NCBI GenBank assembly: GCA_000146465.1
Contig: CP001942.1
Length of the DNA stretch: 64,000 nucleotides
Strand: one strand, 5' to 3'
The position numbers were made by a program, and so were the translations under genes. Shown one piece after another: positions 54,249 to 57,203 of this stretch. The notes beneath the pieces are model-generated. The model had not been told where the DNA came from and ran no database searches. It saw only the letters and a program-made list of their open reading frames with translations. Within the stretch, counting starts at the first letter, position 1, and each line of letters opens with the position of its first letter.

Positions 54249-55628
54249 CTACTTGTAGATGGGATGGGCGTCTACGAGGGCAAGGACCCTTTTCTTCAGA
54301 TCGGCGGCAGCGGGGCTGGAGGACAAGAGGGCAGACGCTGTTTTCTGGAGCTCTGCCTTTGGGATGCTCTTCCCTGGGAATGTCTCTCTGCAGAGCTCGA
54401 CGACGCCGTTGATTATGGCGGCAAGCTCTCTCATGTCATGTGGGCCAAGGCCCCTGGCAGTGACGGCATATGTGCCTATGCGGATTCCGGATGGGTTGAG
54501 GGGGCTTGAGTCACCGGCAATGGTGTTTCTGTTGAGGCTGATTCCCAGGATGTCGCACACATGCTCGACAGCGGTGGCGTTGACGTCCTTGTTCTTGAGG
54601 TCTACAAGGAACATGTGGTTGTCTGTTCCGCCTGTGGGGATGTCGAAGCCCAGGGACAGCAGATGGGCGGAGAGTGCTTTAGAGTTTTCGACGACACACC
54701 TGGCGTACTCTGCAAACTCGGGGGTTGCGGCGTGGAGAAGAGCCGAAGCGATTCCAGCGATTGTGTGGTTGTGGGGGCCGCCCTGGAGCATGGGGAAGAC
54801 GGCGAAGTTGATCTTTGTGTCCAGGTCGATGGAGACGGCGTTCTTTGTAACTGTTTTCCTGTAGAAGATGAGGGCGCCACGGGGGCCTCGAAGGCCTTTC
54901 TGGGTTGTTGTCATGACCACGTCGCAGTGGTTGAAGGGGCTGTTCATCAGGCCACATGCAACCAGAGGAGAGATGTGGGAGATGTCGGCAAAGAGAAAGG
55001 CGTTGTTGGAGGCAGCCAGGGAGGAAAGCCTCTTGTAGTCGATGTCTCTGGAGTATGCGCTGTACCCGCAGATCAGGATGTGAGGCTGGAAGTTGTTGAA
55101 GGCATCCTCGAGGGCATTGTAGTCGATGAAGCCGTCGGGGCCTATTCTGTAGGCTCTTGAGTCGAAGTAAACGCTTGTGGCCGATATCTTCCTGGTCTTT
55201 GTCCTGTATCCGTGTGTCAGGTGGCCTCCAGATGGAAGATCGAGGCCCATGATTCTTCCTCCGGGAGGAACGAGGGCTGTATAGACGGCAAAGTTGGCTG
55301 GGCTCCCCGAGTATGGTTGGACATTGACGCCCCAGACTGCTGGGTCGAGGCCGAAGAGCGAGAGAGCCCTCTTCTGGCAAAGGGTCTCGATCTTGTCTAT
55401 CCATTGTGTTCCTCCGTAGTACCGTTCTCCCACTCTCCCCTCGGAATACTTGTTGGTAAGGACCGACCCGCAGGCCTCCATCACGCTTTGGTGGACGTAG
55501 TTTTCACTGGCTATCAGATTTATTGTCTTTTGCTGCCTTGCAGCCTCTCCGCAGATCAGGGCATGGAGCTCTGGATCCACTGTTTCCATCGGGCCTGTCC
55601 AGAAGCCCTCTCCTCTTCCCTTTGTCAT
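54249..55628 (-). CDS. SHMT: Serine hydroxymethyltransferase
   Basis: 459 aa. PLP-lysine motif VVMTTTQKGLRGPRGALIF (TTHKT-type variant). N-terminal LIASENYV. Glycine-rich GGHLTHG. Confidence 0.9.
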   Translation of the reverse strand: MTKGRGEGFWTGPMETVDPELHALICGEAARQQKTINLIASENYVHQSVMEACGSVLTNKYSEGRVGERYYGGTQWIDKIETLCQKRALSLFGLDPAVWGVNVQPYSGSPANFAVYTALVPPGGRIMGLDLPSGGHLTHGYRTKTRKISATSVYFDSRAYRIGPDGFIDYNALEDAFNNFQPHILICGYSAYSRDIDYKRLSSLAASNNAFLFADISHISPLVACGLMNSPFNHCDVVMTTTQKGLRGPRGALIFYRKTVTKNAVSIDLDTKINFAVFPMLQGGPHNHTIAGIASALLHAATPEFAEYARCVVENSKALSAHLLSLGFDIPTGGTDNHMFLVDLKNKDVNATAVEHVCDILGISLNRNTIAGDSSPLNPSGIRIGTYAVTARGLGPHDMRELAAIINGVVELCRETFPGKSIPKAELQKTASALLSSSPAAADLKKRVLALVDAHPIYK

Positions 55629-55674
55629 GGCTTGTCCTTCCCCAAAACTTAAATACTTGTTGGAGGGAAGATTT

Positions 55675-56559
55675 TCAGACGCTCATGTTCATCTGGATTG
55701 GAGGATGAGGGTTGTACCCCACAAGCTCGAAGTCCTCGAACTCGAAGTCTTCGATTTCCACTCTTGTTCCCTTTGGATTAACAAAGAGCTTTGGGAACTC
55801 TCGGGGCGTTCTTTGGAGCTGTAGCCTGAGGGAGTCGATGTGGTCAAGATACACATGTGCATCCCCCAGGAAGTGGACAAACTCTCCAGGCCGGAGGCCT
55901 GTCAGATGGGCTATGATTATTGTGAGCAGAGAGTAGGAAGCTATGTTGAAGGGCACGCCCAGGCCCATGTCTCCCGACCTTTGGTACATTGCACAGTTCA
56001 GCTTTCCATCCATCACATTGAATTGGAAGAGAACATGGCAGGGAGGGAGAGCCATCTTGGGAAGGGCCAGGGGGTTCCATGCACACACAACCATCCTTCG
56101 GCTCTCTGGGTTGTTCTTGATCGACTCGATCACATCCCTGATCTGGTCGATGCCCTGGCCCTTATAGTCTGAGCTGGATGTCTGGTACTCTGCACCGAAA
56201 TGCCTCCATTGGAACCCGTATATTGGGCCTAAATCTCCTTCCTCTCTGTCCAGACCCATGGACTGCAGGAACTGCTTGGATCCGTTTTTCTTCCAGATCA
56301 TGACACCTTTTTTCTCGAGGATGGCGGAGTCTGTCTGGGCCCTCAGGAAGAACAGAAGCTCCTCGACAATGCCTTTGTAGAAGACCCTCTTTGTTGTCAG
56401 CAGGGGAAATGTGTTGTCTTCGAGGGAAAACCTCATTGATGCCCCGAAGATGGACAGGGTTCCTGTGCCGGTTCTGTCTTGCCTCTTGACACCCTTTTCG
56501 AGGATGTGGGCAATCAGATCGAGGTACTGGTGTTCTGGATGTCTTGTTTCTTGGGTCAT
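55675..56559 (-). CDS. TS: Thymidylate synthase (monofunctional). Start set at internal Met; the listed ORF runs to 56769.
   Basis: TS motifs [11 protein letters not shown], active-site [37 protein letters not shown]. The 70-codon upstream part of the ORF (56560..56769) is H/R/C-rich, non-TS, and would overlap DHFR by 181 nt. Starting at Met71 (complement of 56557..56559) gives 294 aa and a 29-nt spacer to DHFR. Confidence 0.85.
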
Positions 56560-56588
56560 CTGATGTTTTTGGAGGGTTGGAAGGGCTA

Positions 56589-57203
56589 CTAAGGATGTAG
56601 TTTGGTGTAAATGAACATCTTGAAGGAGATGCCGCCTTCGTTGAAGATGTTTTCTTCTGGGATGTAGAAGGCATCTACAAGGGTGGTGTCCACAAGCCTG
56701 GCGACATCGCGAGTGATGTCTCTCTTTTGGTAGGAAGACCAGTCGACCTGAGGGAAGAACACATCGCATTCTGGGGACTCGTGGACCTCTGTGACAAACA
56801 TGGCCTGGACCCTGCCTGTCTGGATTGCAAGGGCATAGATGTCATGTCCTCCGATGACAAAGGTTGCAGGAGATGGGGGAAGAGGTAGATGGTCGAGGGC
56901 GGCGAAGCTTGGGATGAAGAAGGTGTTCTGGGAATGGGGGAGGGAGGATCTTGACAAGACGACATTGATGCGGTTTTGAAGGGGCCTGAAGCGCGAGGGG
57001 ATGGAGTGCCATGTCTTTCTGCCCATGACGACGACATTTGATTTGGAGGGGGAGAGGCTGATGTGGTCGGGGGAAAGGATAGGGACGCTCTGGGAGAGGA
57101 TTCTGAACCAGGCCATGTCTGTCTTGAGGGGATGTTTCCAGGGGAGTTTCCCGTGTCTTCCTATGCCTTGGTTTGCAGCAAGAGCCACAATTAAGGCAAT
57201 CAT
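56589..57203 (-). CDS. DHFR: Dihydrofolate reductase (monofunctional)
   Basis: 204 aa. [27 protein letters not shown]...[12 protein letters not shown]...[10 protein letters not shown] is the DHFR fingerprint. Confidence 0.85.

Follow-up and report, generated by a model that had tools for sequence, protein, structure and literature searches.

The 64,000-nucleotide stretch of contig CP001942.1 (GenBank assembly GCA_000146465.1) analyzed here, referred to below as the window, comes from Encephalitozoon intestinalis and carries the genes for DHFR (dihydrofolate reductase), TS (thymidylate synthase) and SHMT (serine hydroxymethyltransferase) side by side between positions 54,249 and 57,203. This locus raises the question of why three enzymes of one pathway are encoded together in a eukaryotic genome, and whether their adjacency reflects selection on a metabolic cluster, the arrival of foreign DNA, an error of assembly or the history of the chromosome end itself. 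Our data indicate that the block is very probably the known subtelomeric housekeeping block of Encephalitozoon and the innermost part of a 27.3-kb terminal duplication, which is the best explanation overall. The presence of this duplication in three copies is the most important structural property of the block and is invisible from the window alone.

To verify the identity of the three genes, their open reading frames (ORFs) were searched for Pfam domains and judged against the curated gathering cut-offs, which all three enzymes far exceeded. The DHFR gene (56589..57203, minus strand) encodes 204 amino acids (aa) and matches PF00186 (DHFR_1) at 102.7 bits for a cut-off of 25; the TS gene (55675..56559, minus strand), of the ThyA type, encodes 294 aa and matches PF00303 (Thymidylat_synt) at 376.8 bits for a cut-off of 24.3; the SHMT gene (54249..55628, minus strand), of the eukaryotic type, encodes 459 aa and matches PF00464 at 533.3 bits for a cut-off of 27. 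The three genes are co-oriented, with spacers of 29 nt between DHFR and TS (56560-56588) and of 46 nt between TS and SHMT (55629-55674), as the preliminary description of this DNA, made from its letters only, had proposed; the failure in domain searches which that description named as a possible outcome for TS and DHFR did not occur. The DHFR protein is 100% identical to the annotated DHFR of E. intestinalis and its best solved relatives are eukaryotic DHFRs. Its translation contains 'GRHGKLPW', 'VVMGRKTW' and 'FVIGGHDIY', which correspond to the motifs G-x-x-G-x-LPW, GRKT(W/Y) and V-I-G-G that we take to be those of NADPH and folate binding. The TS protein covers the PF00303 profile over positions 1-266 of 266, contains 'LPPCH' with the catalytic Cys of the P-C-H motif, and scores 551 bits against the solved TS of E. 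cuniculi (3KGB). The TS start is an internal ATG in a 364-aa ORF whose frame is open upstream to 56769, and we accept the 294-aa start, since the resulting protein is identical to the one annotated in E. intestinalis and the orthologues are all 290-294 aa long. In SHMT, the Lys of 'TTTQKGLRG' aligns with the pyridoxal phosphate-lysine column of rabbit SHMT ('TTTHKTLRG'). These assignments and motifs are those of a thymidylate cycle, in which TS makes deoxythymidine monophosphate (dTMP) and dihydrofolate from deoxyuridine monophosphate and methylene-tetrahydrofolate, and tetrahydrofolate is regenerated by DHFR and reloaded from serine by SHMT.

DHFR and TS had been described as monofunctional, and no ORF carrying both domains was found. 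The DHFR gene terminates with a TAG codon, and the offset of 644 nt to TS (remainder 2) places the latter in another frame, so the two are not fused. The bifunctional DHFR-TS of many protists (apicomplexans, kinetoplastids) combines the same two activities with DHFR likewise upstream of TS, but here a stop codon and 29 nt of spacer lie between the two ORFs, whose frames differ by 2, and every orthologue of E. intestinalis DHFR and TS examined is also separate. With three adjacent non-homologous genes of one pathway, DHFR, TS and SHMT reach the minimum of three by which a metabolic gene cluster is defined, and the chance of finding three named genes consecutive among ~1,833 is ~2e-6, a post-hoc figure. 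The locus resembles fungal and other eukaryotic metabolic clusters and the subtelomeric gene families of yeast in the adjacency of non-homologous pathway genes, the recombination-prone subtelomere and the duplication between chromosome ends, but differs from such metabolic clusters in that its genes are housekeeping genes of primary metabolism, neither secondary nor dispensable, with no cluster-specific regulator. Ten alternative-frame or antisense ORFs (110-478 aa) in the GC-rich block had no Pfam match at E <= 0.01 and were set aside as a by-product of the high GC content.

The wider context of the block was given by comparison with the telomere-to-telomere (T2T) assembly of E. intestinalis ATCC 50506. 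Positions 45675-60293 of the window are 99.945% identical to one end of CP075158, and the TS gene has an exact match at three T2T chromosome ends, namely both ends of CP075158 and one end of CP075165. The three T2T copies show 0 substitutions over 14.7 kb and only 3-7 single-base gaps. The part of this terminal segmental duplication contained in the window extends over 51815..60293 and is 99.9% identical to the T2T copies (loci L001-L003). Its proximal boundary at 51815 lies 27 nt past the stop codon of an ORF resembling the NAP/SET family (hereafter NAP-like), in a 60-nt spacer before a chitin synthase gene, and the distance from this boundary to the T2T chromosome end is 27,379 bp. This is the same DNA as the 27.3-kb duplication published for E. 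intestinalis at both ends of chromosome I and on chromosome VIII (Mascarenhas dos Santos et al. 2023, PMC10158259). The subtelomeric location on Encephalitozoon chromosome I, which the preliminary description had given, is found in CP075158 and also at the E. cuniculi loci (PMC4704409). As an observation on two further assemblies, the chitin synthase genes of L004 (GCA_051312775.1, CM119893) and L005 (GCA_051312815.1, CM119900), which lie on contigs of the same length (146,790 bp), are identical to that of the window; one contig stops at the repeat boundary, 154 nt past the start of chitin synthase, and the other runs into the block.

A comparison of the neighbourhood across species, which had been suggested as a check, was performed for Encephalitozoon and other microsporidian sequences. 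The order, beginning with a divergently oriented M1-family aminopeptidase gene and continuing through DHFR, TS, SHMT and an ABCB-type transporter gene to the NAP/SET-like gene, is identical in E. intestinalis, E. cuniculi, E. hellem and E. romaleae. In E. cuniculi GB-M1 the full order is present at both ends of chromosome I, and chromosome VIII has the M1, DHFR and TS genes only; in E. romaleae a single copy was seen, at a contig end. Two microsporidian contigs derived from metagenomes in public sequencing runs (L012 and L015) also show this order, with DHFR identities of 57-58% and 48-50%, respectively; in L015 a NUDIX gene replaces the M1 gene upstream of DHFR and the contig stops just after the ABC gene. 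The ABC gene follows SHMT in all six lineages bearing the cluster. An insertion of folate or purine genes between SHMT and the ABC gene, which had been proposed as something to look for, is absent from E. hellem, E. romaleae, L012, L015 and every other locus examined. A dispersal of the orthologues, with clustering produced by an assembly join, had been named as the outcome that would speak against the cluster; it does not occur in Encephalitozoon, L012 or L015, but no partner genes were found near the DHFR of the metchnikovellid Amphiamblys, the DHFR of L014 or the TS of Conglomerata obtusa. No TS or DHFR named from Nosema, Ordospora or Enterocytozoon appeared among the best matches listed, in agreement with the published statement that TS is present in only some microsporidia.

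The cluster was reportedly first described on chromosome I of E. cuniculi, by Duffieux et al. in 1998 and Peyret et al. in 2001. The block of E. intestinalis contains the same genes, in the same order and orientations, as the EXT1 repeat of E. cuniculi (EXT1-2, with aminopeptidase, dhfr and ts; EXT1-3, with SHMT, ABC transporter and NAP/SET; PMC4704409). Like EXT1, it occupies chromosome I at either end and chromosome VIII at one end, is GC-rich, changes its GC skew near the dhfr/ts junction and has its proximal boundary just after the NAP/SET-like gene. The features of an EXT1-type repeat are therefore all present, i.e. the gene content, the near-identical copies at several ends and the abrupt rise in GC. 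Two differences were observed: the chromosome VIII copy of E. cuniculi stops after TS, whereas that of E. intestinalis includes SHMT, the ABC gene and the NAP-like gene, and the protein identities between E. intestinalis and E. cuniculi are only 60-78%. Over all species compared, the identities between orthologous proteins are 61-66% for DHFR, 78-82% for TS, 73-75% for SHMT, 58-61% for the ABC protein and 56-60% for the NAP-like protein.

In contrast to these values, the copies within a species are identical or nearly so. The chromosome I ends of E. cuniculi are 100% identical over 15.4 kb, and on its chromosome VIII an identity of 99.9% extends to a point shortly after TS, in full agreement with the account of Dia et al. 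2016; the two copies of the block in E. hellem are 99.83% identical. Such near-identity within species, together with orthologues at 56-82%, implies concerted evolution. Furthermore, in E. intestinalis, E. cuniculi and E. hellem alike, 17-27 nt separate the NAP-like stop codon from the point where the paralogy between whole-block copies ceases, and this common end makes it most likely that the duplication predates the species and has been continually homogenised. Recombination between chromosome ends, by gene conversion or break-induced replication, would keep the copies identical within a species; we infer this mechanism from the pattern of identity. In E. hellem, one copy (within locus L009; GCA_029215505.1, CP119062 152880-173494) is chromosome-internal, with the core genes Nop5, YIF1 and thioredoxin distal to it, and the loss of one base from a run of five A splits its TS gene (L009, 10657-11540), which reflects either a decaying copy or a homopolymer error of long reads.

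The composition of the DNA changes with the repeat. As the preliminary description had noted, the block sits in a GC-enriched domain: the GC content rises from 0.37 to 0.59 across 51400-52400, a step that coincides with the repeat boundary at 51815, and the GC content at third codon positions (GC3) is 0.65-0.72 in the genes of the block (0.66 in DHFR) against 0.36-0.55 in the core genes of the window. The step tracks the repeat boundary in every species compared. On chromosome VIII of E. cuniculi both the boundary and the step come directly after TS, and the step therefore follows the boundary of the repeat and not the genes. Recombination between chromosome ends is the most likely cause of the enrichment, and GC-biased gene conversion is the explanation that we prefer. 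In addition, the GC skew of the plus strand shifts from ~0 to +0.3 to +0.6 near the TS/DHFR junction and remains high through the M1 gene into the ribosomal DNA (rDNA; 56400-61000); the dhfr-ts interval is also where a transition of composition has been reported for E. cuniculi.

To understand how the three genes could be expressed, their spacers were compared between species. The DHFR-TS spacer (56560..56588, minus strand; TAGCCCTTCCAACCCTCCAAAAACATCAG) has C-rich runs and a short A-run ahead of the TS ATG, and its orthologues measure 20-43 nt, with an A/T box and CCC in the other species. The TS-SHMT spacer (55629..55674, minus strand) reads TTCCCTCCA, then TATTTAA, then GGGG, with the TATA-like box ~20 nt before the SHMT ATG; TATTTAA is invariant and TTCCCTCCA is conserved across 5 lineages. 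In L012 the annotated SHMT start is probably 21 nt too far upstream (4389-4412), and a start at the second ATG (4410) leaves a spacer of 47 nt that has the conserved elements seen in Encephalitozoon. The inverted repeat flanking TATTTAA (TTCCCTCC and GGAGGGGA) was considered as a structured RNA or terminator and rejected: folding of the hairpin gave z-scores that lay only between -1.2 and -2.2 for the four Encephalitozoon species, with 0.0 for L012, its arms lack covariation and it was no better than shuffled sequences, so that it was retained as a promoter-like motif. The SHMT-ABC spacer (54186..54248, minus strand, 63 nt) has TTTATTAAA right after the SHMT stop codon and AATAAAACCCCC ahead of the ABC ATG, both conserved across 4 Encephalitozoon species; TTTATTAAA (54240-54248) resembles a polyadenylation signal (ATTAAA).

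Apart from the DHFR-TS spacer, with its weak A-run, the spacers combine an A/T-rich box, located 10-30 nt ahead of the ATG, with a run of CCC or GGG beside the ATG. Of the 41 genes considered in the window, 24 show CCC at 15 nt or less from the ATG, and an A/T run at 40 nt or less is present in 32. Published promoter signals of E. cuniculi are of the same type, with 5' untranslated regions shorter than 7 nt, and in that species transcripts of one and of several genes coexist through transcription overrun. The intergenic gaps of the window have a median of 72 nt, 9 of 34 being 46 nt or shorter; the 29- and 46-nt spacers are below this median but are not outliers. The promoter-like signals ahead of each ATG argue against an operon or polycistronic unit. 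Each gene would most likely be transcribed from its own minimal promoter in the short spacer, composed of the A/T-rich box and the CCC/GGG run, and multigene transcripts produced by read-through, general in Encephalitozoon, could be by-products. Judged from these spacers, the locus would consist of three ordinary genes, each initiated independently, with possible read-through. No expression data for the genes of the cluster were found in the supplements of the E. cuniculi transcriptome paper or by text search.

Several observations weigh against this interpretation of the block. The DHFR-TS spacer of E. intestinalis has no clear A/T box, and the use of promoters and the absence of functional polycistrons are what we infer from the sequence of the spacers. 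The zero divergence of the paralogues could be slightly overstated by the polishing of long-read assemblies. The window and the T2T record differ at eight sites (51837, 51930, 52227, 59626, 59828, 60019, 60168 and 60183), all inside the repeat and none in the 6.1 kb of core compared. For the GC enrichment, Dia et al. 2016 (PMC4704409) discuss strand-asymmetric mutation in E. cuniculi, which would be an alternative to biased conversion.

The hypothesis of a metabolic cluster maintained by selection would explain the constant order by co-expression, either through read-through transcripts or through a shared subtelomeric chromatin state that would switch dTMP synthesis on in proliferating stages, and the duplication by gene dosage. 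The order from DHFR to the ABC gene indeed persists down to 48% DHFR identity although the upstream neighbour has changed from M1 to NUDIX in L015, the spacers are 20-50 nt in all lineages and below the window median, transcription overrun is documented in E. cuniculi, and subtelomeres have been reported as methylated, heterochromatin-like domains. However, the gene order of Encephalitozoon cores is collinear anyway and the unrelated NAP-like and M1 genes are conserved too, so that a conserved order does not speak specifically for selection; promoter-like signals precede every one of the genes, linkage is absent around DHFR in Amphiamblys and L014 and around TS in Conglomerata, and chromosome VIII of E. 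cuniculi has DHFR and TS without SHMT. We therefore regard selection for a cluster as a minor possibility. A broader form of this idea holds that DHFR, TS, SHMT and the ABCB gene are an old 'thymidylate island' of the Encephalitozoon-related lineage, selectively maintained beyond inherited synteny. The block is GC-rich relative to the adjacent core wherever this can be compared, and the terminal duplications share their proximal boundary in three species with complete or near-complete chromosomes; the existence of such an island is nevertheless improbable in our opinion. If true, its placement would serve dosage, through three copies, and the co-regulation of dTMP synthesis with the proliferative stage at the level of chromatin.

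A foreign origin, by horizontal transfer of a bacterial operon-like unit or of TS from an animal host, appears very unlikely. The layout is operon-like, TS is 62-66% identical to animal enzymes (424-427 bits to mammalian TS against 353-360 bits to two fungal structures), TS and DHFR are patchy across Microsporidia, and Encephalitozoon subtelomeres are known landing sites of transferred genes. Against this, SHMT scores 487 bits to the rabbit cytosolic enzyme and ~310 bits to bacterial enzymes, and no bacterial ThyA is present among the top 60 TS structures; since SHMT and TS are of eukaryotic type, a bacterial operon origin is unlikely. The nearest relatives of DHFR outside the microsporidia are from early-diverging fungi and Amphiamblys has a DHFR orthologue at 44% identity, which is consistent with vertical descent. 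Animal TSs are numerous and slowly evolving and hence crowd the match list, and the higher scores to animal than to fungal TS are regarded as an effect of rate and sampling. An assembly artefact, finally, would place the three genes side by side by mistake; the departure of the distal end of the window from the T2T record at 60293 and the bridging of the 2010 assembly ends by polymerase chain reaction (PCR) are compatible with such an error. The same gene order nevertheless recurs at three ends of the T2T assembly and in further assemblies of E. intestinalis, and it is shared by three other species and two independent metagenomic contigs; the adjacency is therefore not an assembly join. The chance that it is one is negligible: an artefact is refuted for the cluster, and only the junction between the M1 gene and the rDNA is doubtful. 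The subtelomeric housekeeping block, duplicated between chromosome ends, is thus the explanation that we retain.

The doubtful junction bears on the claim that the block lies next to the rDNA, which holds in the window, where an rDNA unit (60522..64000, plus strand) starts at 60522 with the microsporidian small-subunit gene (60522-61816) and continues with the large-subunit (LSU) gene from 61926 to the window end (Rfam), but not in the T2T record. The similarity between the two breaks at 60293, after GGGTGGTTTGAGA, and the following 228 nt (60294..60521), which lead into the rDNA, have no counterpart at the T2T position and match none of the loci compared. Between the M1 aminopeptidase and the chromosome end, the T2T assembly has at least two InterAE/B genes (DUF3654/DUF1609) and one InterD gene (DUF2463). 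In the 2010 assembly of E. intestinalis the chromosome ends were joined to the LSU rRNA gene by nested PCR, with a caution by its authors on length variation, and the T2T assembly added 393 kb. The junction at 60293 is probably a PCR-bridged or collapsed end of the older assembly, or a length variant of the population. Since the T2T assembly lacks the close adjacency, proximity to the rDNA is not to be taken at face value, and the discrepancy indicates that the chromosome ends of the older assembly are unsuitable for inferring the distance to the rDNA.

Among the neighbouring genes, the transporter that was described as abutting the block is an ABCB half-transporter (52341..54185, minus strand, 614 aa) with ABC_membrane and ABC_tran matches, i.e. 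a transmembrane domain followed by a nucleotide-binding domain. Its best full-length matches are ABCB25 (211.6 bits), Atm1 (196) and ABCB7 (192), which suggests, not conclusively, that its closest full-length relatives are exporters of the Atm1/ABCB7/ABCB25 type; its nucleotide-binding domain matches ABCB1 and ABCB19 as well or better. The last gene of the repeated block is the NAP/SET-like ORF (51842..52375, minus strand, 177 aa), with a weak NAP match (E 1.7e-4) below the cut-off, whose E. cuniculi counterpart was called a NAP/SET family gene (PMC4704409). In E. intestinalis this ORF and the 3' end of the ABC gene share 35 nt (52341-52375); a gap of 30-51 nt lies between the two genes in E. 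cuniculi, E. hellem, E. romaleae and L012, where the ABC protein is 8-24 aa shorter. The chitin synthase gene (49331..51781) is next to the NAP-like gene and outside the repeat. On the other side, the M1-family aminopeptidase gene (57247..59835, plus strand; Peptidase_M1_N, Peptidase_M1 and ERAP1_C) is divergent from DHFR, and their start codons are separated by an A/T-rich spacer of 43 nt (57204..57246). Its ORF has 862 aa in the window and 860 aa in the T2T annotation, the C-terminus differing because of a 1-nt indel at window position 59828. The annotation of E. romaleae (CP003518; L011, 2535-5131) divides the M1 gene beside DHFR into ORFs of 584 and 217 aa, suggestive of a gene disruption or of an error in sequencing.

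Two proteins among the TS matches merit a comment. P0128 is a DHFR-TS fusion of 469 aa that comes directly after the microsporidian TSs in rank; it was rejected as a microsporidian fusion, as it belongs to a marine-metagenome (TARA) scaffold of 61% GC; its DHFR part is only 36% identical and its score is inflated by the internal duplication of a 70-residue segment. P0129, a 291-aa 'thymidylate synthase 3-like' protein attributed to the ant Nylanderia fulva, is encoded on a 184-kb contig, is 66% identical to the TS of the window and ranks above the other named animal TSs among the matches listed; it may be a microsporidian contaminant of the ant assembly.

The cluster and the terminal duplication were already known (Dia 2016; Mascarenhas dos Santos 2023), the block is real but ordinary, and the cross-species comparison proposed for it is largely published. 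The text describing the 27.3-kb duplication (PMC10158259) makes no mention of dihydrofolate, thymidylate or folate and states that repeated segments other than the rRNA locus are not conserved between species, whereas the part from M1 through DHFR, TS, SHMT and ABC to the NAP-like gene is conserved here in both its order and its proximal boundary. Our results bring minor additions, namely the extension of the chromosome VIII copy of E. intestinalis through SHMT, the ABC gene and the NAP-like gene, the conservation between species of the housekeeping part of the repeat and its proximal boundary, and the presence of the DHFR, TS, SHMT and ABC order in two more distant lineages (L012 and L015). 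The locus is also a clean example of the concerted evolution of subtelomeric housekeeping genes, with a GC shift that tracks the repeat boundary within a few hundred bases. TS and DHFR are targets of antifolate drugs, and their presence in three copies per haploid genome means that gene knock-out, or the use of DHFR as a selectable marker, is affected in Encephalitozoon.

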